DNA of 64,000 nt, from the NCBI GenBank assembly GCA_011364965.1, contig RDOB01000002.1:96001-160000 (forward strand), given 5' to 3'. Source of the stretch: Candidatus Heimdallarchaeota archaeon. GTDB taxonomy: Archaea; Asgardarchaeota; Heimdallarchaeia; Hodarchaeales; Hodarchaeaceae. The position numbers and the translations under genes were made by a program. Positions 12,427 to 26,782 of the stretch are shown here, piece after piece (within the stretch, counting starts at the first letter, position 1; each line of letters starts with the position of its first letter). The notes below the pieces were generated by a model that worked only from the letters and a program-made list of their open reading frames with translations, made no database searches and was not told the DNA's origin.

Positions 12427-14421
12427 TTGTCTTCAGAATATGGTGCAAGCTCAATTCAAGTACTTGAGGGGCTCGAAGCTGTTCGACGGCGTCCTGCCAT
12501 GTATATTGGCAGCATTGATGATTACGGTCTACATCACTTAGTTTGGGAGATCGTTGACAATTCAATCGATGAAGCTATGGCAGGTTTCTGTGATAGAATC
12601 AAAGTAATTCTTGGTCAGACTGAACGAGGACTTGAATCTGTTACAGTTCAAGATAATGGGCGTGGAATTCCTACTGAACCACATCCTCATTATAATATGT
12701 CATCCTTGGAATTGGTTACAACTCGACTTCACTCTGGAGGGAAATTCGATCATTCCTCTTATAAAGTAAGTGGAGGATTGCATGGGGTTGGAATTGCGGT
12801 TGTTAATGCATTATCCAGTTGGATGCAAGTAAAAGTAAAAAGAAATGGTAAAATTTTAATGCAAGAATACGTCCGTGGTGAAACTATTTCTCATGGTTTA
12901 ATCGAAGTGAAGGAAAACTGGGATTACAAGAGTGGTACACATACAACTTTCATCCCAGATCCTGATATATTTGAGACAGTACATTTTGATATAAACCCTA
13001 TTCGAAATCGTCTTAGAGAATTAGCTTTTCTTAATAAAGGCCTCACTATAACTCTTATTGATGAAAGAAAACCTAGAGATGATGATAAGGAGGAATCGAA
13101 ATCAGATATTCCTGATGAAGTTACTGAAGAAACTGAAAAACAAAACCGATGGATTTTTCACTATGATGGAGGAATAAAAGCTTATGTAGAACAGCTCGCC
13201 ACGAATCGCTTACATGAAGACTTACCTTATTTTGATGAGACAATAGAAACTACACAAGTTGAAGTTTCTCTTGCATACGATAATTCCGAACGCGATCTAA
13301 TCTATACATTTACAAATAACATTAATACACGTCATGGGGGAACTCATTTATCTGGATTTAAATCGGGTTTAACAAGAGCGATTAATTCTTATGCTTTGAA
13401 AAATGACCAATTAGTTAAAAATTCTCATTTAAAAAAGGAGCTTAAAGATAAAAGAAGTATATTTACTGGGAATGATGTTAGAGAGGGATTAGTTGCTGTT
13501 GTTTCTGTCAAAGTAATAAATCCACAATTTGAAGGACAAACTAAAACTAAGTTAGGAAATAGTGAAGTGAAAGGAGCAGTAGAAAGCTGTTCCTATGAGA
13601 ATATCTTGAAATTCCTTGAAGAACATCCATTAAGCGCTAAAGCAATAATCGAAAAATGCGAAGCTGCAGCTACATTAAGAATGAAGTATCGACAACTTCG
13701 TGATGCGGTACGAAAAACTCAAGTTAAAGGTACTGGGAAATTAGTTGATTGTGCTGTTACTGATCCTGCTCAAAGAGAGTTATTTTTAGTGGAGGGCGAT
13801 TCTGCTGGAGGAAGCGCAATTGAAGGCCGATTTAGCGAGTTTCAAGCGATCCTTCCTCTTCGTGGAAAAGTAATTAATGTAGAAAAAGCTAGATTAGAGA
13901 AAGCGATGAGAAATAAAGAAATTTTGGAAATTATTCGCGCGGTGGGAGGAGGATATAGGGAAAATTTTCAAATAGAAAATGTACGTTATCATAAAGTGAT
14001 TTTATTGATGGATGCGGATATTGATGGTCATCATATTGTTTGTTTATTACTTACATTTTTCTTCCGTTATATGCCCGAGCTTATTGACGAAGGTTATTTG
14101 TACATCGCTCAACCTCCATTATTCCGACTGAAAAAGGGAAATAAAGAAGTATATGTGCTTTCAGAGAAAGAAAAAAATGAAATCACAACAGAATGGGGAA
14201 GTAGGGTTGAAATTAGTCGATTCAAGGGACTCGGAGAAATGAATCCTATTCAATTAAGAAATACTGTAATGGATCCCAGTAATCGAACTCTTCTCCAAGT
14301 TACTAGGGAAAATATCATTGACGCAGAACACATATTTAAAACATTAATGGGCGATGAAGTTGCACCTAGAAGGGAGTTCATCGAATCACATGCCTTAGAG
14401 GCGGAAAATCTAGACTTTTAA
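12427..14421 (+). CDS. gyrB: DNA gyrase subunit B
   Basis: Motifs LEGLEAVRRRPAMYIG, EIVDNSIDE, DNGRGIP, GGLHGVG, VEGDSAGG, PLRGK, MDADIDG and RFKGLGEM. Confidence 0.97.
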   Translation: MSSEYGASSIQVLEGLEAVRRRPAMYIGSIDDYGLHHLVWEIVDNSIDEAMAGFCDRIKVILGQTERGLESVTVQDNGRGIPTEPHPHYNMSSLELVTTRLHSGGKFDHSSYKVSGGLHGVGIAVVNALSSWMQVKVKRNGKILMQEYVRGETISHGLIEVKENWDYKSGTHTTFIPDPDIFETVHFDINPIRNRLRELAFLNKGLTITLIDERKPRDDDKEESKSDIPDEVTEETEKQNRWIFHYDGGIKAYVEQLATNRLHEDLPYFDETIETTQVEVSLAYDNSERDLIYTFTNNINTRHGGTHLSGFKSGLTRAINSYALKNDQLVKNSHLKKELKDKRSIFTGNDVREGLVAVVSVKVINPQFEGQTKTKLGNSEVKGAVESCSYENILKFLEEHPLSAKAIIEKCEAAATLRMKYRQLRDAVRKTQVKGTGKLVDCAVTDPAQRELFLVEGDSAGGSAIEGRFSEFQAILPLRGKVINVEKARLEKAMRNKEILEIIRAVGGGYRENFQIENVRYHKVILLMDADIDGHHIVCLLLTFFFRYMPELIDEGYLYIAQPPLFRLKKGNKEVYVLSEKEKNEITTEWGSRVEISRFKGLGEMNPIQLRNTVMDPSNRTLLQVTRENIIDAEHIFKTLMGDEVAPRREFIESHALEAENLDF

Positions 14422-14426
14422 TAAAA

Positions 14427-16940
14427 TTGGTTGAGAATAACATGAGTAGCAATATTAAAATTACTCCTATTGAAAAAACAATGTCAAAAAGCTATTTAGA
14501 GTATTCGATGTCAGTTATAACTAGTAGAGCCTTGCCCCACGTTCGAGATGGACTAAAACCAGTTCATCGACGAATTTTCTGGGCTATGCATAATTTGGGT
14601 TTGGTTCATTCGAAACCACCAAGAAAGTGCGCTCGTACAATAGGAGAGACACATGCTAAATATCACCCACATGGAGAAACAGCAGTTTATGATGCATTAG
14701 TGCGAATGGCCCAACCTTTTTCATTAAGATATCCATTAATCGAGGGTCAGGGAAATTTTGGAAGCATGGATGGACAACCTCCTGCTGCCCAACGGTATAC
14801 TGAAGCAAGAATGCAGGAAATTGCTGGTGAATTGTTAAAAGATATCGAAAAAGAAACTGTTGACTTTGTTGATAATTTTGACGGTTTAGATAAAGAACCA
14901 GTGGTCTTACCTGCTAGAATTCCAAATCTATTAATTAATGGAGTGATGGGGATTGCAGTAGGTATGGCAACATCAATGCCTCCCCATAATCTGAGTGAGA
15001 TCTTAAATGGTGTAATTGCAACAATTAAAAATCCTGATATCACGATTAAAGAGTTGATGAATCACATACCTGGTCCAGACTTTCCTACTGGAGGGGTTAT
15101 TTATGGTACAGCTGGGATAAAAGAGGCCTATCATACAGGCACTGGAAGTGTAATTCTCCGAGCTAAGTATGAAATTGTCGAGACCAAATCAAAAACCCAA
15201 ATTATAGTAACTGAAGTTCCTTATCTTGTTAAACGTCAAGATACGATTGAACAGAGAGGATTGGTCGATGTAGTACAAAAATTAAAGGATGATGGAAAAT
15301 TTCCTGAACTTGGGAAGATTAAAAATGAATCGAATATCATTCATGGTACTAGAATAGTAATCAACGTAAAACAAACTGCTAATTTAGATATTGTCCTCAA
15401 TCAATTATTTAAATATACGCCAATGCAGACATCCTATTCTATCAGAAATATGGTTCTTGTTGATGAGCGTGTAGGGGATGAGATAAAGTTTAGGCCAAAA
15501 AATCTGAATATAAAGGAATTAATAACTCAATTTATTGATCATAGGAAGGAAGTTGTATATCGAAGAACTCAATTTGATTTAAGAAAGGCGCGCGAGAGAG
15601 CTCATATATTAGAAGGGAGAAAAGTAGTTGTGGAAAACATTGATGAGGTAATTCGAATTATACGTGGTTCTGCTACTGGTTCCGATGCTCAAGAAGCATT
15701 AATTGAAAAATATTCATTCACCGAAATACAAGCCAGAGACATTCTTTCTTTACCTCTACGTAGTTTGACACGATTTGATAGAGAAAAGATTATTCAGGAA
15801 TACGAGGAAGTACTTAAGGCGATTCAAGAATACGAGGAAATTTTAGCTAGTGAACAGCGCGTGTTAGATATAATAATCACAGAAACAGAGGAAATAATAA
15901 AGAGATATGGGGATGCTCGTAAAACTGAAATTCTCCGAGATGATTCTGAAGATTTTCAGGATTGGACTGGGAAAACAGAGGAAGATTTTATTACCAAAGA
16001 GGATATTGTAGTTACGTTAACTCAAAATGGTTATATTAAAGCAATCTCTGCTGAAGTATATAACAGCCAAAGAAGAGGAGGGAAGGGGATAAAATCTATG
16101 GAGCTAGGGAAGGATGATTTTTTGCTAGAGATGATAGTTGCTTCAACTCATGATACAATTCTATTCTTTACAACAAGCGGAAAAGTCTACCGAGCTAGAG
16201 GATTTGAAATTCCTCGGTCAAAACAAAGAGTAACCAAGGGTACAAATATTGTAAATCTTTTAAAGATGGAACCAGACGAGGAAATTGAAACATTAATTCC
16301 TATTTCGGATTTTGATGAAACAAAATATTTGATATTAGCAACGAAAAATGGATTGATTAAAAAAACATCATTAACTGATTATTCTAACATTCGAACCACA
16401 GGTATTATTGCAATTCAGCTTCGGGAGGATGATCAAATCGTTGGGGTAAAAATAACAAACGGAAATGATGCAATTATACTAGCAACCGCTGATGGAAAAG
16501 CAATACGATTCCCGGAGAAGGATGTTCGTCCTGTTGGCCGAGGAAGTATTGGAGTTCTTGGCATACGTCTAAATGAAGGAGATTCGGTAGTAGATATAGC
16601 AATTGTTGATGAAACAAAAACTTTACTTACTGTGTGTCAAAACGGATATGGAAAAAGATCTAAATATGACCAATACAGAACAACTCGTCGTAATGGAAAA
16701 GGAATCATTAATATCAAGACTACTGAAAGGAACGGACCTGTTATTGCAGTGAAAAGTGTATCAAATAAAGATCAGCTTCTTATGGTAGCAACTGATGGCA
16801 AATTAATCCAGATTCCAATCAAAGGAATACGAACTATCGGAAGAGCTACTTCTGGAGTTACTCTGATGAAATTAGATTACGAAGAAGGTGTTAGTATTTC
16901 CTCGATTGCTATACTCTCTGATGAGGAAGGTGCTGAATGA
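14427..16940 (+). CDS. gyrA: DNA gyrase subunit A (start may be ATG 14442)
   Basis: DGLKPVHRR, YHPHG, catalytic AAQRYTEAR, GyrA-box QRRGGKG and beta-pinwheel CTD repeats. Confidence 0.97.
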   Translation: MVENNMSSNIKITPIEKTMSKSYLEYSMSVITSRALPHVRDGLKPVHRRIFWAMHNLGLVHSKPPRKCARTIGETHAKYHPHGETAVYDALVRMAQPFSLRYPLIEGQGNFGSMDGQPPAAQRYTEARMQEIAGELLKDIEKETVDFVDNFDGLDKEPVVLPARIPNLLINGVMGIAVGMATSMPPHNLSEILNGVIATIKNPDITIKELMNHIPGPDFPTGGVIYGTAGIKEAYHTGTGSVILRAKYEIVETKSKTQIIVTEVPYLVKRQDTIEQRGLVDVVQKLKDDGKFPELGKIKNESNIIHGTRIVINVKQTANLDIVLNQLFKYTPMQTSYSIRNMVLVDERVGDEIKFRPKNLNIKELITQFIDHRKEVVYRRTQFDLRKARERAHILEGRKVVVENIDEVIRIIRGSATGSDAQEALIEKYSFTEIQARDILSLPLRSLTRFDREKIIQEYEEVLKAIQEYEEILASEQRVLDIIITETEEIIKRYGDARKTEILRDDSEDFQDWTGKTEEDFITKEDIVVTLTQNGYIKAISAEVYNSQRRGGKGIKSMELGKDDFLLEMIVASTHDTILFFTTSGKVYRARGFEIPRSKQRVTKGTNIVNLLKMEPDEEIETLIPISDFDETKYLILATKNGLIKKTSLTDYSNIRTTGIIAIQLREDDQIVGVKITNGNDAIILATADGKAIRFPEKDVRPVGRGSIGVLGIRLNEGDSVVDIAIVDETKTLLTVCQNGYGKRSKYDQYRTTRRNGKGIINIKTTERNGPVIAVKSVSNKDQLLMVATDGKLIQIPIKGIRTIGRATSGVTLMKLDYEEGVSISSIAILSDEEGAE

Positions 16941-19900
16941 TGACTGACGCTGTTAAATCATCAAAAAAAGGGAAAATAACAAAGGAAAAGGTTGTAAAAA
17001 GATCTGCAGCTGATTTCTTTCAAGATAATAAAGCAATTGCGGGTTTCGACAACACCATGCGTGTAGTTTTCACCAGCGTTAGAGAACTTGTTGAAAATGG
17101 GTTGGATGCTGCAGAAAGAATAGGGAAACTTCCAGAACTTATTATTACAATCTCAAGACTCAAAAAGGAGGAAATTGCAAAGCTATTAAATGTTAGTTCT
17201 TTTGATTCATCAGAGAAACTTGATTTCATTCGACTTACTGTGCGAGATAATGGAAGTGGAGTTCAATCTGAATTTGTGCCTCCTTTATTTGGAAGAGTGT
17301 TGACAGGGAGCAATTATGGCGCTAGACAGTCACGCGGTCGATTTGGTTTAGGTGCCAAAATGGTGTTGCTTAATGCCATGTCCTCCGTTGATTTACCTCT
17401 TATCGTCAAATCGAAACATATGAACGAAGATTTTACTAGTTATCATGAAATTATGATAAATTTAGCCGAAAATGAGCCAATTATTCTCTTGAAACGAGAG
17501 ATCCCTCAAGAAACTCCTGAAGCAATCCCTGAATCAGGGACGGAAGTGAGTGTTACTTTCACTGGTTCTTGGAATTTAGCCTCCCGTTGGATAAGGGAAT
17601 ACTTCTCTCAACTTAGTTTAATAACACCTTACGCAAGGATTCTTGTTACTTATCCTGATAGTGAATCTCCTGAAGAAATGCCCCGAGTAGTTGAGGATAT
17701 GCCTGGTTATCCCCAAATTGCCAAAGTTCATCCTTGGGGAACAGATATAACACAATTTAAACGGGAAATTGCTGTTACTAAAAGTCCAACCGTGGAAGAG
17801 TTTTTACAAGATCATTTTCAAGGGATTGGGAAAAAAACAGCCCAAGAATTTCTTGAGTACGTTAAAATTGATAACACTAAATCGCCACATGACCTTAGTG
17901 CTAGTGATATTCGCCGAATTGTGCATGAAGGTTTTGTTATGCCAGATTCTGACCCTAAAAAGCGCCGAGATCAGAAATATTTCCCTTTCAAAAGGCCATC
18001 TGGGGATTCATTGAGTCCTCTAAGCGCAGAATTACTTGCGAAAGGGATTCAAAAAGAATTGGATCCTCAATTTGTAAGATCAGCAACTGGTGATATTTCT
18101 GCATATTCTGGTCATCCATTTATTGTTGAAGCAGCTTTAGCTTATGGGGGTCCTATACTTTCTAAGGAAGAGGGGAGCAAATCAGGAACACCAAGAATTT
18201 ATAGATATGCAAACCGTATACCATTATTATTCGGAGCAGGTAATGATATTATCACAAAATGCGTTCAAAAAATGAACTGGAGAAACTACAAGATTAACAT
18301 CAATAAAGCTCCAATAGCAATCGTAGTATCTGTTGTTTCATCCAAAATTCCTTTTCCCGAGACAAGTAAAGAATATATCGCTGATGTTGATGAGTTAAGA
18401 AAAGAAATTTACAAAGTGCTGAAGAAACTAGCCCGTGGGCTTGGAACGCACTTAGGAAAAGCTGAGAGGGAACGAAGGGAGAAACAAAGGCAATCTAGAT
18501 TCGAGAGTGCAGCGCCTAAGGTTATAGACAATCTTAGTAAAATTCTTGAGACAACGGATACCCCTTTTCTTCTCAAATCTCCAGAAGAAATAGCTAAATT
18601 AGAAAAAGCTCTTGCTTCTGCAGAAACCAAGCTTATACGTCGAAAATATCCCCCTAGCCCTGCGATTTCCAGTATTGGTGAGTGGTTACCGATGACCACA
18701 TACGCCACATTAGTGGAAAATGGTATACAAACTATTTACCAGTTTTTAAGGGCACCAAACGTTGAATTAATGTCTATTACTGGTTTATCAGAAAAAAGAG
18801 TAGCAGAAATAAAACGTTTAACTGTTACTAGCCAAAATCGTGCTACTCAGTCCCCTTCTCTCCGTGAGTTTGAGATATTTGATAAACGACTAGAAAACGA
18901 CTTTAATAAATATCTCGAGGCACCTAGGATCCATAGAGCTTTAACTAAGCGCTGGTTGGTGTCAGCGCTTGATTTATTTGCTACACCTATTACGCAACTC
19001 CGAATGGTGGAATCATTAGCTGAAAAGTTAATCTACGAATCCAAGATTCAAATGATTAACACTTTAATCGCTGAGAGTACAATACCAGAGATCGAATTCG
19101 ATACACTTCCTTGGATGACAAACGATCTCCAAAAATCTTTAAAATCTGCAAAAATTCACACATTATTTGAATATTTAGCTAGTTTCCCTGAGAAATTGGC
19201 CGATTTACCTTACCTAAATGAAATATTGATTGAAAAAATAAAACAAGAGATACGGGAAGGAATTAAACAAGGATATATTGATGGAGAAAAGGTAATTGGT
19301 GCAGCTACTTTTGAGTGGATGGACTACCGTGTCACACCTAGATTGAGAGGGAGGAAGGTTTCTAAAATTATAGAATTCCTTGAAACATCTAATGAAAAAC
19401 TATCAGAGCTTTCAGAACTGACTGAAAATTTAATTAATAAGTCAAAAGATGAAATCAAACCTCATCTAGCTCGATTCAATGATGAGAATTCATTGAACAC
19501 TCTTCCAGGTATTAATGAAACCATGAAAGCTGATTTTATGCGAGTAGAGGTAATCGGATTCATTGATTACTTATCTAAACCTAATTCGGAACTGGTATTT
19601 GTACGGGGGCTAGTTGATAATCTTATTATTCAGAAACAAGATGAAATTATGGATCAGGTAAGTCAGCAACATGAATTATTCCCAATAAAACACGCTTGGT
19701 GGCTGGATAGAGAGTTAGAGAATAAATTAAAATCAATAGGAATTAATTCAGTTTTTGATTTCGTTCGGTATCCCACCCAACAACTAGCAGAAATAAAAAA
19801 TTTGGATTACCAAACCCTTGAGACCATAAAAAATACTTATGGGACTCCTATACCTTTGATAAACGATCAAGATAAGGTAAAACTAGACAATCAGCAGATA

Positions 19901-22900
19901 ATCTGCCTAGAAGAATTAGAATTTATAGATGATTTCTCAAAAATCAAACCTGAAGAACTCTCGAAGAAATTAAAAGATTTGATGATATATATTCAAGCTC
20001 CAATTTGTTACTTGCCTATTCCAAGTAAATTTTATCAAATTCTTCATCATTTAGGTGTATCTCAAATTTTTGATTTCTTAATCTGGCCTGACCATGATTT
20101 ACACCATAAAGGAGGACTTCCTTACAAATTAATAGAGGAAATCAAAAGTGAAATATCTTTGGACATGATTCAAGACTTAATTAAATCAAAAAGTGTTTTA
20201 GTATCTGCTATTTCAAATAATCTTGACTCAAAATTACTAGATAAAATACCAGCTGATTTTACTTTACAGGAGTTGTATTATAGATTACCATACGCAGATG
20301 ATCGTCTAGCAAACCTTCAGTTAAGTAAGACAGAGATTGAAACTCTTATTGATATTTTTCTTACTCCTATATCAAGGATTCCTTCCATAAAACCCAAATT
20401 TATTAACAAATTAAGAAATATCAGTATAAATACATTTATTGATCTAATAACATGGGAAAGAGAAGTAATTGCTAAAATTATTGGAAGAGATGAGAAATAT
20501 ATTCAATCAATTTTTGAGAATTTTGAACAATTTACTTCTGGAAAACCTCTATTCAATTTAGGAGTTTTTAATCAAACTGAAATCAAAGCGTTAATCTCTC
20601 AAGGATTCAAAACAGTTGAGGATCTTTATTTTCGTGCAAATCATGAAACATTTGGTACTATGGGCGTAAAATGGAAGAAAATTGAAAGATACCAGAGAAT
20701 TCTAGAAACTCCAGTAGCAATGCTTCAAACAAGATCAGAACAAGGTAAAATTTCTCACGATGCGTTGGAAAGATTAGCAGATAATGGTATAGACCAAATA
20801 ATCAAGCTTGTTTATTGGCCAGAGAATGAATTACAATCTATCCTAAAAATACCCGAAAAACGAATTATTGAATTGAAAGATTCTATTGCTATTAAAGAAC
20901 ATGGCATGCCTTTGACCAAGGTGTGTGGGTATAATAAAAAAACTCTGAATACCCTTCTAAGTTACGGTATCGAGACAATTGAGGATCTCTATTTTAGCGC
21001 GTCCGAAGATATGGTTGACGAGGATGATGATATCGAGTGGGATTACGTTAAACAGGCAATTGAAGCACTTGACATACCTATTTCATTTTTAGATGGCATT
21101 ATTGCTACAAAATATATTGAAAAATTACAGGGTAAAAAAATCGACACGATAATACGCTTTTTGATAACATCAGAAGAGGAGCTAAGTGAGATCTTGGGTA
21201 CTCCTATAGACAATGTGGAGAATTTAAGACAGAAAATCAACCTTATTCGTTTTAGGGAATCAACTGAAACTTCTATTTCAATTTTGGAGGGATTAACAAG
21301 AAAACAACTCAGAGTTCTTTCTGAAGAGAATATATCCTCAATTTACGATTTTATAATTGCAAATGACGAATCCTTGGCAAGTATATTAGAGATGGATTTA
21401 GAACAAGTGAGTTCAATGAAAAATAATTTGAATTATGATAGTATTCGCATTATTAAAGAGGAAAAAATGGTTCCTCTAGTCAAGATATCGCTTTTTGATA
21501 AAAGAATCGTAAAGCAGCTAGCACGTATGGGGATTGAAAGTTTAGCTGATCTTTATTATGTAGCTACTCCTAAAACGTTTGAAGAAAGCTCAATAAGTTG
21601 GCAAATGATCCAAGATGCAAGAGCAATACTCGATTTGCCAATAGAAATCATTCCTGAAATCACAAAAAAGGAAATAAATACCTTAAAAAAGGCGAAAATT
21701 AAAATAATATTTGATTTACTCATGGAAAGTCCTGAAGAATTATTTAAAAGAACCAATATAGATGCAGAAACAATTGAATCATTACAGAATTCAATAATTA
21801 TTGATGAACTAATAACAATTCTAAAACGTTTATCAGTAGATAAATTCAATTTTCCTAAAGAGTATTTTGCTGAAATAAAGAAAAATAAGCTTGATTCAGC
21901 TTATGATTTAATTTCTTATGAGAATGAAGATCTTTTTCTCAGTCAAGAAGGAAAGAAAAAAGTAAGAATCGATAAAAATAGTTGGGTGGATGTTTCCTCA
22001 ATCCTATCTATACCTCTTCGTCTTTTTATGAATTTTGAAAATGAAATTATGAAGGGTTTAAAGCGAAAGCGTATTATAAACTTAAGAGATGCATATGCAG
22101 CTTCTGAAGAAAAGTTTGATGGTTTATTTGAGGATGGAGGATTGGATTTCCTGGAAACATTGCGTGTTTTAGATTTTAAAGAAATTAGAGATTTTCTGAG
22201 AATATCAATATGTTTCACACCTCATATCTCTCCTGAATGGCTTTTTTCCTTAATAAACAATTCAATTTATACCATAGAAGACATTTTATCTTGTGAACTA
22301 AGAGATCTTACTAAAATTCTGAATTCTTCTTTACCAAGAACTAGAAACTTCATAAAAGAAATATCTATGAATAGTACATTAAAATGCCTTGAGGAAGAGC
22401 TTATTCCTCTAGATAAACTCTCTTCAATCTTCTCATCAGAAATAATAACCAAATTAGAGAGTATAGGGTATAATTCGTTACAAGACTTTATCATTCGGAT
22501 AACAGATGCTACTGATATCGATGGAGTTTCAGATGTTCTAAAAATCCTTAATTCACCCGTTAATAGATTATCCGATGATATACCCCTTAGCGAAATAAGG
22601 AAACTATCTCAACAAGGAATTTCCACAATTAGAGATTGGTTAATTGTACAAAATTCAGTTATATCAGACATAATTGATATTGAAAAAGACATTATTTACG
22701 AATTAAAGCGTTCATTTGATTTTAAGAGCATAAGTGAAGTTTCAGATGTAGAAACCTCCTTAAATGATTACATTGAGAAAGGGTACATCGATTTTGACGA
22801 ATTAAATAAATTAGGGATTCGTACTATCGAAGATTTGCAATTTATTGAAATAGATACACTCTCTGCTTCAGAAGAATTTTTATCTCGTATAAGATCATTA

Positions 22901-23881
22901 AAAGATGCATTGACCTCCTCACTAGCCTATTATACGCGTCTTCCTCCTGAATATGTTATCCCTTTGGCGTTAAATGGAGTCACATCTGTAGCTCGTCTGA
23001 TTAGAACAGAATACTCTCAAATTGAGAATCCTATAAATATCACAAATGAAAAATATAGTGCAGCAAGAGAAACAGTCAATCTAATTGATATAATTACCCA
23101 TAAGAAAAGTGATTCTGAATTTAGAGTTCGGTTATCATCTCTTAAAGCCTTTACTTCAAAACAGCTTGAACAGATTCAGAAACTTGGCTATGATAATGTG
23201 ATAGACCTTTATTTCATGCTTGATACCGAACAGGTACCTAAGTCTTTAGTAGGGTCAATCGAATCAACAAAAACAGTTTTAGAAAAACCCCTAGCTCTAC
23301 TTCCCTCGGTTCAAGAGGCATTTCCTCAAAAGATACCTCTTCTTCACAATGCTGGAATAACCTCGATAATTGAATTCTTATTCTGGCCAAAAGACGAATT
23401 GGCTGAGCTTCTTGAAATAAAACGATATGAATTGTCGCGCTATAGAAAAATCGACATTGGAGCTCTTAGGAGAAAGAGAAACTTGGGAACACCAATAGAA
23501 AACTTCCCAAGAATTCCAGAAGAGCTTATTGAGACTTTTAAACAGATAGGAGTAGATAATATAGAAGATTTATATTTTCTTTTTACAAAATATCCTAATT
23601 TAATACCAGATGATGTTATCCCAAGAAAAATCATAACTACATGTATCAATGACCTCGAGAGCCCCGTTGTTAAATTACATGGACTACCCATACCAGTGGC
23701 ACAAGAATTAGTAAAAAAAGGGATCACTAGAATCATTGATTTCTTATATTGGCCTATGGACGACCTAAAACCTGTTTATGGTTTATCAGAGGCGAAAATT
23801 AAAAAAATAAAGGACTCAATTAGATTGAGGGAGAAATCTGACGTTGTTGGTAGACTAGACTCTTACATGAGGCAGGATTGA
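16937..23881 (+). CDS. top6B: DNA topoisomerase VI subunit B with a ~1750-aa C-terminal array of HhH-like repeats
   Basis: GHKL motifs RELVENGLDA, DNGSG, QSRGRFGLG and GTEV; H2TH (FQGIGKKTA); transducer RYANRIPLLF and PFPETSKEYIA; then about 28 LxxxGIxTIxDL repeats. Confidence 0.95.
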   Translation: MMTDAVKSSKKGKITKEKVVKRSAADFFQDNKAIAGFDNTMRVVFTSVRELVENGLDAAERIGKLPELIITISRLKKEEIAKLLNVSSFDSSEKLDFIRLTVRDNGSGVQSEFVPPLFGRVLTGSNYGARQSRGRFGLGAKMVLLNAMSSVDLPLIVKSKHMNEDFTSYHEIMINLAENEPIILLKREIPQETPEAIPESGTEVSVTFTGSWNLASRWIREYFSQLSLITPYARILVTYPDSESPEEMPRVVEDMPGYPQIAKVHPWGTDITQFKREIAVTKSPTVEEFLQDHFQGIGKKTAQEFLEYVKIDNTKSPHDLSASDIRRIVHEGFVMPDSDPKKRRDQKYFPFKRPSGDSLSPLSAELLAKGIQKELDPQFVRSATGDISAYSGHPFIVEAALAYGGPILSKEEGSKSGTPRIYRYANRIPLLFGAGNDIITKCVQKMNWRNYKININKAPIAIVVSVVSSKIPFPETSKEYIADVDELRKEIYKVLKKLARGLGTHLGKAERERREKQRQSRFESAAPKVIDNLSKILETTDTPFLLKSPEEIAKLEKALASAETKLIRRKYPPSPAISSIGEWLPMTTYATLVENGIQTIYQFLRAPNVELMSITGLSEKRVAEIKRLTVTSQNRATQSPSLREFEIFDKRLENDFNKYLEAPRIHRALTKRWLVSALDLFATPITQLRMVESLAEKLIYESKIQMINTLIAESTIPEIEFDTLPWMTNDLQKSLKSAKIHTLFEYLASFPEKLADLPYLNEILIEKIKQEIREGIKQGYIDGEKVIGAATFEWMDYRVTPRLRGRKVSKIIEFLETSNEKLSELSELTENLINKSKDEIKPHLARFNDENSLNTLPGINETMKADFMRVEVIGFIDYLSKPNSELVFVRGLVDNLIIQKQDEIMDQVSQQHELFPIKHAWWLDRELENKLKSIGINSVFDFVRYPTQQLAEIKNLDYQTLETIKNTYGTPIPLINDQDKVKLDNQQIICLEELEFIDDFSKIKPEELSKKLKDLMIYIQAPICYLPIPSKFYQILHHLGVSQIFDFLIWPDHDLHHKGGLPYKLIEEIKSEISLDMIQDLIKSKSVLVSAISNNLDSKLLDKIPADFTLQELYYRLPYADDRLANLQLSKTEIETLIDIFLTPISRIPSIKPKFINKLRNISINTFIDLITWEREVIAKIIGRDEKYIQSIFENFEQFTSGKPLFNLGVFNQTEIKALISQGFKTVEDLYFRANHETFGTMGVKWKKIERYQRILETPVAMLQTRSEQGKISHDALERLADNGIDQIIKLVYWPENELQSILKIPEKRIIELKDSIAIKEHGMPLTKVCGYNKKTLNTLLSYGIETIEDLYFSASEDMVDEDDDIEWDYVKQAIEALDIPISFLDGIIATKYIEKLQGKKIDTIIRFLITSEEELSEILGTPIDNVENLRQKINLIRFRESTETSISILEGLTRKQLRVLSEENISSIYDFIIANDESLASILEMDLEQVSSMKNNLNYDSIRIIKEEKMVPLVKISLFDKRIVKQLARMGIESLADLYYVATPKTFEESSISWQMIQDARAILDLPIEIIPEITKKEINTLKKAKIKIIFDLLMESPEELFKRTNIDAETIESLQNSIIIDELITILKRLSVDKFNFPKEYFAEIKKNKLDSAYDLISYENEDLFLSQEGKKKVRIDKNSWVDVSSILSIPLRLFMNFENEIMKGLKRKRIINLRDAYAASEEKFDGLFEDGGLDFLETLRVLDFKEIRDFLRISICFTPHISPEWLFSLINNSIYTIEDILSCELRDLTKILNSSLPRTRNFIKEISMNSTLKCLEEELIPLDKLSSIFSSEIITKLESIGYNSLQDFIIRITDATDIDGVSDVLKILNSPVNRLSDDIPLSEIRKLSQQGISTIRDWLIVQNSVISDIIDIEKDIIYELKRSFDFKSISEVSDVETSLNDYIEKGYIDFDELNKLGIRTIEDLQFIEIDTLSASEEFLSRIRSLKDALTSSLAYYTRLPPEYVIPLALNGVTSVARLIRTEYSQIENPINITNEKYSAARETVNLIDIITHKKSDSEFRVRLSSLKAFTSKQLEQIQKLGYDNVIDLYFMLDTEQVPKSLVGSIESTKTVLEKPLALLPSVQEAFPQKIPLLHNAGITSIIEFLFWPKDELAELLEIKRYELSRYRKIDIGALRRKRNLGTPIENFPRIPEELIETFKQIGVDNIEDLYFLFTKYPNLIPDDVIPRKIITTCINDLESPVVKLHGLPIPVAQELVKKGITRIIDFLYWPMDDLKPVYGLSEAKIKKIKDSIRLREKSDVVGRLDSYMRQD
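18650..23820 (+). repeat. Protein-level tandem array of about 28 degenerate ~55-70 aa HhH-like units in Top6B
   Basis: Recurring [P/S]-hydrophobic start, L-x-x-x-G/K-I-x-[TS]-I-x-[DE]-[LF] core, e.g. ENGIQTIYQFL, SIGINSVFDFV, SQGFKTVEDLY, SYGIETIEDLY, KLGIRTIEDLQ, NAGITSIIEFL, KKGITRIIDFL. Confidence 0.85.
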
Positions 23882-25296
23882 ATAGTATGACTGAAGTACA
23901 AAGAATACCAATTCAATTAGAAGATTATGCTTTTACTGAACAGTTAAAAAAAATCCTTGTTCCAAAAGATGAATCTTTGAAGGGTATAAAGCAAATAGTT
24001 CAAACTGAGTTGAATCTTAAAAGAACGAAATATATCCTATTTTTTGGAGCAAAAAAAGGAAAAAATTTTCAGGAACTTACTAATAAGGATATGAGTCTAT
24101 TTTGGGAGCTAGCAGAGGCTAAAAATGTCGTCATTCGAGTTCGTAAGCTAGTAGATTTGTCAAAGGTCAAGAAATTAAGAGAAAATGCAGTTCAAGAATT
24201 AATTGATCTTCCAGTTTCTGTTTTAAAAGTTGATAATGTTACTCCACGAGAAACTAAAGCCAGATTGATAGATGTTGCTAAAACTTTTTTAGCAGAAATC
24301 GCAGAGGATCCAAAAAGCGCAGCTTTTCGCATTCCTTCACGGAGTTCTGAAAACGTTGGTTATGATGACACCTCAAAAATGGTTTTGCTTGGGTCTCAAG
24401 TTGTTGATCGGCAATTTCGTCATCTTAGTAGTGTTCAGAGCGTTGTACAACTAACAGGATTGATGCGTTATATTATAGAAATTTTGGAGACTGAAAAGCA
24501 TGCTACAAAACGACATCTTTTTTATCGTGATGTGAATCTTTTCAGTAATCAACGAGTTTCTGATAGCTTGATTGAGGATTTAGGGGCATTACTTCGTGTT
24601 TCACGTAATTCAATGAATGTAATTGCCTCTGCAAAAGGAAAAGTAATTGGTCGACTTTCATTTACCGAAGGTGGGGATCGTATTGATTGTACTCAAGGTT
24701 TAGGAGGTCATGCAATTACTCCAATGCTAGATCAAGTAGAGGATTTTGAGAGTGATGCTGAATTTGTTTTGGTCATAGAAAAAGATGCTGTCTTCCAAGA
24801 TCTTGCGGAAGACAAATTTTTTAATTATTTGCCTAGTATTCTAATAACTGCATCAGGACAACCAGATATGGCCACTAGAATGTTTATAAAACAAATTTAT
24901 GAAACCCTACAATTGCCAATACTAGGTTTTCTTGATGCTGATCCCTATGGATTAGATATATTGCGTGTATATTCAATTGGAAGTAAAGCTTTGAGTTTTG
25001 AAAGTGTTGAATTAGCAGTACCTGACATTCGATGGCTAGGTCTGCTTCCTTCAGATATCAAAGAGTATGCAATACCAAAATCTGTCTTGATTAAAATGAC
25101 TGAAAATGACATGAAACGAGCTGATGATCTATTGCAAGAAGATTTCGTCAAGTCTCGTCCACAATGGCAAGAACAAATTGAAATAATGAAAGTAACTGGG
25201 ATGAAAGCCGAGATACAAGCCTTAGCAAGTAAGAATTGGAGATATATGACAGAATCTTACCTACCATCAAAGATTGATGGTGGAAATTTCATATAA
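23878..25296 (+). CDS. top6A: DNA topoisomerase VI subunit A (Spo11 family) with N-terminal extension; start may be ATG 23887
   Basis: Catalytic Tyr region TKRHLFYRD; TOPRIM VIEKDAVF and DADPYG; GQPD; KAEIQAL. Confidence 0.95.
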   Translation: MNSMTEVQRIPIQLEDYAFTEQLKKILVPKDESLKGIKQIVQTELNLKRTKYILFFGAKKGKNFQELTNKDMSLFWELAEAKNVVIRVRKLVDLSKVKKLRENAVQELIDLPVSVLKVDNVTPRETKARLIDVAKTFLAEIAEDPKSAAFRIPSRSSENVGYDDTSKMVLLGSQVVDRQFRHLSSVQSVVQLTGLMRYIIEILETEKHATKRHLFYRDVNLFSNQRVSDSLIEDLGALLRVSRNSMNVIASAKGKVIGRLSFTEGGDRIDCTQGLGGHAITPMLDQVEDFESDAEFVLVIEKDAVFQDLAEDKFFNYLPSILITASGQPDMATRMFIKQIYETLQLPILGFLDADPYGLDILRVYSIGSKALSFESVELAVPDIRWLGLLPSDIKEYAIPKSVLIKMTENDMKRADDLLQEDFVKSRPQWQEQIEIMKVTGMKAEIQALASKNWRYMTESYLPSKIDGGNFI

Positions 25297-25521: not shown

Positions 25522-26193
25522 ATGTTGAAAATCTCTTCCTTAATTTTTCCAGATTATAAAGATCAAATTGATAGAGATTTTTTACGTAATAAGTTAAATC
25601 TCGTACAAAATATCATTTTTTCATCAAAGGGGAAAAATTTAAGCGATAAAGATATTCAACAGATTAAATTAAAACTAGGACCGAAGATGGGTGATTCAAA
25701 TCTTTATAAAGGTGGATCAAGTGTTCTTTTTGGATGGAGTTTTGAATTTCCAATTATAGGAAGGGTCATTATTAAGCCTTATTACAAACGCGAGCTCTCT
25801 CATTTGATTATTCACTATTTGACATCCTTAGATTGTATAAAAGATATCAAGGAATTTGCTTTCACCTTAGGGGGAGTTAGATATGAGTTAGCAATACCAG
25901 AAGTTATAGGTTTGGCGAGAATTGAGAACCTATCTTATAATTATCCTGTTCTTCTTACACGAGAGATTTTGGGAAAATCTATTCTCACATATACCCCAAT
26001 TATTACTAAAATAAGTAGTGTGATTCGAGATGTTGCACGAAAAGGAATTATTTGCGATCCATATCCTGCTAATTGGAAAATACGTTCAGAGAATAGGATA
26101 TGGAAGATTTATTATGTTGATTTATTGAGTTCCAATGCTTTAAGTGATATTCATTCACGAATTGCTCAATTAATAGAGGAGCTTGGAGAATAA
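25522..26193 (+). CDS. Protein kinase-like fold protein
   Basis: KGGSSVLF (Gly loop), VIIK, IPEV, REILG, catalytic-loop-like DPYPAN and YYVD. Confidence 0.55.
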   Translation: MLKISSLIFPDYKDQIDRDFLRNKLNLVQNIIFSSKGKNLSDKDIQQIKLKLGPKMGDSNLYKGGSSVLFGWSFEFPIIGRVIIKPYYKRELSHLIIHYLTSLDCIKDIKEFAFTLGGVRYELAIPEVIGLARIENLSYNYPVLLTREILGKSILTYTPIITKISSVIRDVARKGIICDPYPANWKIRSENRIWKIYYVDLLSSNALSDIHSRIAQLIEELGE

Positions 26194-26209: not shown

Positions 26210-26782
26210 TTAGCGCTGATCTCTGTAATATACGGCTCTTCTAATTGCTGAAGCAAATGCAGTTCCAACTCCTTGTGAGGTGACTGCAGATGTTGAGAAA
26301 TATGTAGCTTGCATTTTATCTGCGAATTTTAATCCAATATCATCACTAACTTTCCGTAAGTTTGATAAATCAATTTTATTACCTATGAGAACAGCTGGAG
26401 TATCAGGCAGTGTTTTTTTTACTTCTTTTACCCAACTTGGCAGAGATAATACAGTGTCTTCGCGAGTAACGTCAAATACATAGATAATGGCATGAGCACC
26501 TTCATAAAATAGTGGACGGACTTTATCAAACGCTGGTTGACCTGAAAGATCCCAAAAAATAGCTGTTGTCGTTTTCTCTATATCTTTTGCCGTACGTAAC
26601 TTGATAAATGAGATATCTGCTCCAGCAGTAGGTTTATGTTCGAAATTTCTATTTGTGAAAACAGAAACCAACTGAGTTTTACCAACCAAGGCATCCCCAG
26701 CAACTACTATTTTATATTGAGTGTAATGCGGAATTTCAAAAAGAATATCATCAGCTGACATGATTTGTGAATCTCCAGACAC
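26210..26782 (-). CDS. Rab-like small GTPase
   Basis: Motifs GDALVGKT, PTAG, WDLSGQ, FYEGA, NKID and TSA. Confidence 0.9.
   Translation of the reverse strand: MSGDSQIMSADDILFEIPHYTQYKIVVAGDALVGKTQLVSVFTNRNFEHKPTAGADISFIKLRTAKDIEKTTTAIFWDLSGQPAFDKVRPLFYEGAHAIIYVFDVTREDTVLSLPSWVKEVKKTLPDTPAVLIGNKIDLSNLRKVSDDIGLKFADKMQATYFSTSAVTSQGVGTAFASAIRRAVYYRDQR

Follow-up and report, generated by a model that had tools for sequence, protein, structure and literature searches.

Introduction

SPO11, the enzyme that starts meiotic recombination, pairs with a degenerate TOPOVIBL subunit and makes breaks only. Here we describe a relative of SPO11 in an archaeon: the A subunit of a topoisomerase VI (Topo VI), encoded by the gene top6A in a 64,000-nucleotide stretch of DNA from a Candidatus Heimdallarchaeota archaeon of the order Hodarchaeales (assembly GCA_011364965.1, contig RDOB01000002.1, positions 96,001 to 160,000 of the forward strand). 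We refer to the whole stretch as the window.

Close relatives of this protein have been described in two papers. Brinkmeier et al. (2022; PMC9665070) modeled structural features and reported an extra TopoVIA helix and a third TopoVIB transducer helix common to Asgard archaea and Eukarya. Eukaryotic TOP6A works with BIN4 and RHL1 (PMC9665070). A later study (Nat Ecol Evol 2025; PMC12680538) presents a phylogeny together with topology tests and describes a shared motif. It counts Top6A among the eukaryotic-signature proteins of Asgard archaea, places an Asgard clade as sister to eukaryotic TOP6A/SPO11 and infers vertical inheritance of Top6A into the last eukaryotic common ancestor. For six other single-copy replisome genes, a set from which Top6A was excluded, it found little support for eukaryotes as sister to Hodarchaeales.

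The window protein resembles the conserved Asgard Top6A of these papers in its domain order, its extra N-terminal helix, its eukaryote-type catalytic-tyrosine motif and its tree position nearest eukaryotes. It differs in belonging to a long-form subclade of ~470-amino-acid (aa) proteins with an N-terminal ubiquitin/PB1-like domain. We consider it very likely that this is the functional catalytic A subunit of a Hodarchaeales Topo VI, eukaryote-like by common descent and part of a derived long-form subclade, and not a specific sister of the eukaryotic proteins. As our results agree with PMC9665070 and PMC12680538, the central finding is correct but already known. What we add is an independent confirmation, refined in one point: on Top6A, other Asgard groups are closer to eukaryotes than Hodarchaeales are. 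Less expected features of the locus are a ubiquitin-like (Ubl) domain on the A subunit and a giant tail on the B subunit.

Domains, motifs and fold of the window Top6A

The gene and the parts of its product are as follows.

23887..25296 or 23878..25296, plus strand: top6A, topoisomerase VI subunit A; open reading frame (ORF) without internal stop, Pfam matches
23887..24150, plus strand: N-terminal ubiquitin-like domain (beta-grasp, PB1/Ubl type), residues ~4-91, from AlphaFold2 (AF2) models
24148..24306, plus strand: extra N-terminal helix (residues ~91-103) and LP..V..V motif, then the B-subunit-binding helix (residues 123-143), from the secondary structure of the model
24442..24621, plus strand: 5Y-CAP (winged-helix) domain with catalytic Tyr216 and Arg212; Pfam TP6A_N
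24763..25275, plus strand: Toprim domain with metal-binding E301, D353 and D355; Pfam PF21180

Read from the ATG at 23887 the protein has 469 aa; read from the TTG at 23878, which overlaps the top6B stop codon, it has 472 aa. The sequence AGGA/GAGG lies 10-15 nt upstream of the ATG, and the 100%-identical database copy of the product (P0003) is 469 aa long.

Pfam detects TP6A_N at residues 189-248 (4e-18, 65.4 bits against a cut-off of 26) and TOP6A-Spo11_Toprim (PF21180) at residues 296-466 (2e-62, 210.5 bits against a cut-off of 24.1). Alignments of 17 and of 58 homologues show no variation at R212, Y216, E301, D353 and D355. The AF2 model has a predicted local distance difference test score (pLDDT) of 90.9. 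By Foldseek it matches the Top6A of M. mazei, S. shibatae and M. jannaschii at E values of 1e-25 to 1e-28, with target-normalized template modeling (TM) scores of 0.81-0.89 for 9o8p_A, 2zbk_A and 1d3y, and yeast Spo11 at 6e-16. By both domains, fold and catalytic residues, the protein belongs to the A subunits of Type IIB topoisomerases (the Top6A/Spo11 superfamily).

The sequence-only reading of this DNA had listed nine motif segments in the region 24450-25296, and all nine are present in the translation: HATKRHLFYRDVNLF at residues 208-222, NVIASAKG at 247-254, LAEDKFF at 309-315, GQPDMATR at 327-334, DADPYGL at 353-359, PDIRWLGLLPSD at 382-393, EDFVK at 421-425, KAEIQAL at 443-449 and YLPSK at 461-465. 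The interval corresponds to residues ~192-472, the 5Y-CAP and Toprim domains. The 5Y-CAP motif is of the eukaryotic type, TKRxLFYxDVxLFxxQxxSD, and the Toprim motifs are GQPDMATR, DADPYGLDIL, IRWLGLLPSD and KAEIQAL.

Similarity to plant TOP6A and animal SPO11

We searched 1.84 billion cluster representatives exhaustively with phmmer, using the window Top6A as the single query. Beyond three Heimdall representatives, the first match was a conifer TOP6A (P0124, itself 88% identical to Cryptomeria TOP6A) with 327.8 bits and 46% identity. A diatom (Thalassiosira) TOP6A scored 312.9 bits (P0127) and a mammalian SPO11 cluster 261.1 bits at 37% identity (P0132), while the top non-Asgard archaeal match, from Hydrothermarchaeales (P0133), scored 255 bits. 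Top6A proteins of known structure scored lower with the same query: 204.4 bits for S. shibatae 2zbk_A, 154.6 for M. jannaschii 1d3y and 126.0 for M. mazei 2q2e. The expectation that the protein lies closer to plant TOP6A and metazoan SPO11 than to Sulfolobus or Methanosarcina Top6A is thus borne out in phmmer bits, with the exception of yeast Spo11 (44.7 bits). The matches are far beyond chance, with E = 1e-92 among 1.8 billion proteins.

The top matches include an SPO11 clade of 70 sequences, in which every sampled member is eukaryotic (spider, annelid, millipede, oyster, slug, bryozoan, sandfly, maize SPO11-1 and Chara). In a language-model feature search (Atlas), 19 eukaryotic clusters rank before the first archaeal cluster, and the pipeline of the Joint Genome Institute (JGI) labels homologues "meiotic recombination protein SPO11". 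The protein misses the cut-offs of all six prokaryotic Top6A equivalogs in NCBIfam (NF003332-NF003337; best 263.7 bits against 465), consistent with the NCBI label "hypothetical protein" on most homologues.

The resemblance to plant and stramenopile TOP6A (the AtSPO11-3 type) amounts to 44-46% identity over ~345 aa and extends to the motifs TKRxLFYxDVxLFxDQxxSD, GQPDxATR, DxDPYGLxIL, IKWLG and KAEIQAL and to the N-terminal helix; those proteins differ in having no Ubl domain, and the window protein sits in a separate clade. With metazoan SPO11 it shares 33-38% identity (200-261 bits) and the same catalytic Tyr and Toprim residues, and in mammalian SPO11 the segments IRWLGLLPSD and KAEIQAL are nearly identical to its own. 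The difference lies in the partner, which is a degenerate TOPOVIBL for SPO11 and a Top6B with a complete GHKL ATPase in the window. Classical archaeal Top6A (2zbk_A, 1d3y, 2q2e_A) share fold and catalytic residues, but their identity in Foldseek alignments is 26-34%. They have additional residues inserted behind the catalytic Tyr, and neither the extra N-terminal helix nor the Ubl domain is present in them. The origin of SPO11 is a real question, to which the window protein, with 44-46% identity to plant TOP6A and 37% to mammalian SPO11, contributes a valid data point. In practical terms, the window Top6A is a candidate enzyme for biochemical studies of eukaryote-like Topo VI.

Alignment revealed discrete shared characters. 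Asgard proteins and all eukaryotic paralogues have TKRxxxYxDVxLF..Q..SD with no insertion after the catalytic Tyr, whereas most other prokaryotic Top6A have 7-15 additional aa there; Hydrothermarchaeales P0133 is without the insertion. Residues 91-118, comprising a helix (95-103 in the model of the window protein) and LP..V..V, can be aligned across all Asgard groups and with eukaryotic TOP6A/SPO11-2 but not with non-Asgard prokaryotes. They match the Asgard/eukaryote helix alpha1 described in PMC9665070 and may be the "signature motif insertion" of a figure in PMC12680538. Finally, W386, P391, L359 and L362 are common to eukaryotes and the Heimdall and Njord groups but not to Loki/Thor or non-Asgard proteins.

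Eukaryote-likeness is a property of Asgard Top6A

The closest homologues of the window protein are 72-89% identical to it and mostly labeled Hodarchaeales or Hodarchaeum, and the best 120 homologues all come from Hodarchaeales/Heimdallarchaeia. A scan of GTDB genomes with an alignment of six sequences yielded 79 named loci with homologues, all of them Asgard. In a BLAST matrix, the Asgard groups ranged in median identity to eukaryotic TOP6A from 50% (Njord) and 49% (Borr/Sif long form) through 47% (short-form Heimdall) to 44% (both Hodarchaeales and the Loki/Thor/Odin/Baldr/Hel set) and 43% (other long-form Heimdall); the value for non-Asgard prokaryotes was 32%. Counts of diagnostic columns were 31 for Hodarchaeales, 33 for Njord, 34 for short-form Heimdall, 41 for the Borr/Sif long form and 23 for Loki. 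Patristic distances from Amborella TOP6A were 1.58 to Njord, 2.27 to Hodarchaeales and 3.73 to non-Asgard proteins; from the window protein, eukaryotic TOP6A lies at 2.35 versus 3.99 for non-Asgard prokaryotes. By these sequence comparisons, the eukaryote-likeness of Top6A is Asgard-wide, with Hodarchaeales among the less eukaryote-like Asgard groups.

An initial FastTree tree of 191 rows, in which the attachment of eukaryotes had supports of 0.23-0.34, was replaced by two IQ-TREE trees made with posterior mean site frequency (PMSF) mixture models. Tree 1 (LG+C20+F+G4 PMSF) has 77 rows and 381 columns. Tree 2 (LG+C20 PMSF; 62 rows, 395 columns) is without the long SPO11 and SPO11-2 branches. 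The outgroup comprises Hydrothermarchaeales, DPANN, a Thermoprotei-like group, Planctomycetes and others, with no Methanosarcina or haloarchaeal sequences; a profile search for non-Asgard relatives had returned few names (Aenigmarchaeota and Planctomycetes).

In tree 1, eukaryotes form one clan (99/97) and non-Asgard prokaryotes another (100/99). The window protein is placed among the Hodarchaeales (100/98), and these lie within a long-form clade (100/100) that also contains other Heimdall and Borr/Sif proteins. In tree 2, eukaryotic TOP6A groups with Njord (87/67), and Njord, eukaryotic TOP6A and the Heimdall group form a clade (100/96) that excludes Loki/Thor, related groups and non-Asgard prokaryotes.

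The BLAST comparison and maximum-likelihood phylogeny of Top6A that the sequence-only reading had proposed as its check therefore put the window protein among its Asgard orthologues and closer to the eukaryotic proteins than to those of non-Asgard prokaryotes. It stands outside TACK, Euryarchaeota, DPANN and bacterial clades and so not in the ordinary archaeal clades; as the trees contain no named Euryarchaeota or TACK sequences, the distance to those groups rests on the bit scores of PDB proteins. The same reading had proposed a close prokaryotic relative of the meiotic double-strand-break enzyme. This holds insofar as, in our trees, the window protein is part of the archaeal Top6A lineage closest to eukaryotic TOP6A/SPO11. 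Neither this gene nor its lineage is exceptional in this closeness (44% versus 47-50% median identity; grouping with eukaryotes rejected at p = 0.00015), which is also no new insight, having been reported in PMC9665070 (2022) and PMC12680538 (2025).

The topoisomerase cluster and the Top6B partner

Three genes precede top6A.

12427-14421, plus strand: gyrB, from Pfam and ORF spacing
14427-16940, plus strand: gyrA, from Pfam and ORF spacing
16937..23881, plus strand: top6B, the partner of top6A, 2314 aa

Together, gyrB-gyrA-top6B-top6A form one tightly spaced, same-strand cluster of four topoisomerase genes (12427-25296, plus strand). The gyrase pair that adjoins the Topo VI genes is of the bacterial type. 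GC content is uniform across the window at ~33%, and the window's own assembly (2.97 Mb, 87% complete) holds one copy of Top6A.

As expected of a Topo VI holoenzyme, the gene adjoining top6A encodes a complete GHKL ATPase and transducer. Top6B consists of a normal GHKL-H2TH-transducer core (~1-550) followed by an array of helix-hairpin-helix (HhH)-type repeats of ~1750 aa. Against the archaeal NCBIfam equivalog NF003218 the core reaches 445.8 bits, above the cut-off of 274, and residues 1-560 match S. shibatae Top6B (2zbk_B) at 2.6e-80. The clusters closest to the core in the Atlas are archaeal. We also considered the core as a eukaryote-like protein; with archaeal Atlas neighbors and a pass on the archaeal equivalog, this idea found no support. 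Nor did the suggestion that the unusual B partner is relevant to TOPOVIBL evolution, as the core is ordinary archaeal and the tail occurs in a clade that excludes eukaryotes.

Immediately downstream of top6A is a 223-aa ORF (25522-26193, plus strand), a position kept in 17 Hodarchaeales loci. Its product has no match in Pfam or NCBIfam. The ORF may encode a factor associated with Topo VI; alternatively, the loci may share this gene order through mere relatedness. After it, on the opposite strand, comes a Ras/Rab-family small GTPase (26210-26782, minus strand; Pfam Ras, 3.9e-35), an arrangement kept in 14 Hodarchaeales loci. Such GTPases are typical Asgard eukaryotic-signature proteins, and one just downstream of top6A fits an Asgard genome.

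Origin and proposed function

Several results weigh against an origin of eukaryotic TOP6A and SPO11 within Asgard diversity or against our view of the window enzyme. With the SPO11 branches included, eukaryotes join the Heimdall group only weakly (69/39, tree 1), and in approximately unbiased (AU) tests on tree 1 the grouping of eukaryotes with the long-form clade is only borderline (p = 0.06) and a single Asgard clan is not rejected (p = 0.17). Hydrothermarchaeales are likewise without the post-Tyr insertion. The non-Asgard outgroup is a biased sample of nearest representatives, and several tree rows are metagenome proteins. The catalytic activity of Heimdall-class Topo VI is itself inferred.

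A rival reading would make the Hodarchaeales protein the closest prokaryotic relative, and specific sister, of eukaryotic TOP6A/SPO11, mirroring the species-tree proposal of eukaryotes as sister to Hodarchaeales. The window does come from a Hodarchaeales archaeon, plant TOP6A is the top non-Heimdall match of its Top6A, and eukaryotes weakly join the Heimdall group in tree 1. We nonetheless regard this as very improbable, given that the AU test on tree 1 rejects a clade of eukaryotes and Hodarchaeales (log-likelihood difference, dlnL, 106; p = 0.00015) and that the 100/100 long-form clade holding the window protein excludes eukaryotes. In addition, Njord, short-form Heimdall and Borr/Sif proteins are closer to eukaryotic TOP6A, eukaryotes have no N-terminal Ubl domain, and PMC12680538 gives little support for forcing such a topology on its single-copy replisome genes (Top6A not in the set). 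The failure to reject an Asgard clan when SPO11 is included, the long non-Asgard branches and the missing insertion in Hydrothermarchaeales P0133, the nearest non-Asgard sequence, could instead mean that Asgard and eukaryotic TOP6A are slowly evolving and retain an ancestral state, while other Top6A diverged and gained the insertion, so that similarity overstates any specific relationship. This strikes us as improbable, if somewhat less so: the tree restricted to TOP6A nests eukaryotes within Asgard diversity (100/96), the AU test on that tree rejects the Asgard clan (p = 0.017), eukaryotes share W386, P391, L359 and L362 with Heimdall/Njord and not with Loki/Thor, and the published analyses agree with the nesting.

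Transfer of the gene from a eukaryote to Asgard archaea, or a contaminating eukaryotic contig, has the similarity itself as its sole evidence. Here top6A is the last gene of a packed cluster with overlapping stop and start codons, the contig that carries the database copy is up to 646 kb long and GC content is uniform at ~33%. Orthologues occur in all Asgard classes in a tree that broadly tracks taxonomy, and eukaryotes form one clan outside every Asgard subgroup. We therefore give this explanation almost no weight.

Under the account that we prefer, descent from a common Asgard-type ancestor, Top6A would pair with the adjacent Top6B as an A2B2 enzyme, as in solved Topo VI structures. This enzyme would cut both DNA strands via Tyr216, with Mg2+ on the Toprim residues E301, D353 and D355, and, driven by ATP hydrolysis, move another duplex through the break, resulting in supercoil relaxation and decatenation. 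It may work alongside gyrase. A partner with a complete GHKL ATPase implies a true strand-passage topoisomerase, and nothing points to a meiotic-type, break-only role. Eukaryotic TOP6A and SPO11 would have arisen from an Asgard-type Top6A near the Njord and Heimdall groups, and a long-form subclade of Heimdall-class archaea would have added the N-terminal ubiquitin/PB1-like domain.

The N-terminal Ubl domain and the giant Top6B tail

Models of the Ubl domain have pLDDT values of 88-91 (88 for the isolated domain) and a strand-helix order of bb-a-b-a-b. VIA-align gives a Z score of 10.9 to the PKCiota/Par6 PB1 domain 1wmh_B (root-mean-square deviation 2.2, 79 aa). Foldseek reports PB1, Ubl and UBX domains at probability 1.0, and a search with the isolated N-terminal domain returned nothing at E <= 0.001. 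We assign the fold as PB1/Ubl because of the VIA-align result and the uniform list of PB1/Ubl matches. Among 58 homologues, the Pfam family ubiquitin matched seven (best 2.8e-6) and Rad60-SLD four.

The domain is restricted to the long-form clade, that is, to Hodarchaeales, other Heimdall and the first Borr/Sif copy, and alignment shows it to be absent from eukaryotic TOP6A/SPO11 and from other archaea. A Ubl domain on Top6A is not mentioned in PMC12680538, as judged by a term search, or in the Asgard passages of PMC9665070, and a full-text literature search found no paper joining topoisomerase VI, ubiquitin-like and Heimdallarchaeota. As a matter of speculation, the domain might mediate PB1-like oligomerization or dock the B tail or another partner.

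Where the upstream sequence of a long-form locus is long enough, it contains an ORF of 850-1000 aa that runs out of the 3-kb flank before any B core is reached (a stop interrupts two of these ORFs, and a few contigs are cut off too early to judge). By contrast, short-form loci with a readable upstream B gene have a Top6B of 543-625 aa or a B core within the flank. In the window and the upstream flanks of loci L002-L054, giant-tailed Top6B thus co-occurs with Ubl-bearing long-form Top6A, and the pairing probably had a single origin, because its bearers form one monophyletic clade. Since eukaryotes fall outside this clade, the tail, like the Ubl domain, is a lineage-specific addition and not a eukaryotic trait.

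It is conceivable, though rather unlikely, that long-form Heimdall-class Topo VI is a regulated or scaffolded holoenzyme in which the Ubl domain and the ~1750-aa HhH tail arose together and mediate self-assembly or the recruitment of partners on chromatin. If so, it would offer a prokaryotic precedent for the control of eukaryotic Topo VI (BIN4/RHL1) and of SPO11 complexes by accessory factors. Being 37% identical to mammalian SPO11, it would also provide a tractable system in which to study how a topoisomerase might become a break-maker.

Other Top6A architectures

Two Top6A genes occur ~11 kb apart on one contig in both Borrarchaeum weybense (JAHQJS010000006.1; L021/L057) and Sifarchaeum (L022/L058). 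One copy of each pair is of the long form with the Ubl domain, the other is a short copy of ~390 aa, and the tree places both within the Heimdall group.

Some Thor/Loki homologues are considerably larger, their Top6A core being preceded by 370-590 additional N-terminal residues: P0125 has 746 aa, P0126 has 950 aa and the ORF at the Thorarchaeota locus L079 has 845 aa. Some TACK-like Top6A representatives (the P0159 cluster from Thermoprotei, 609-844 aa; P0200; P0259) have lengths of 750-900 aa and match in two to three separate stretches, which suggests an insertion, possibly an intein.

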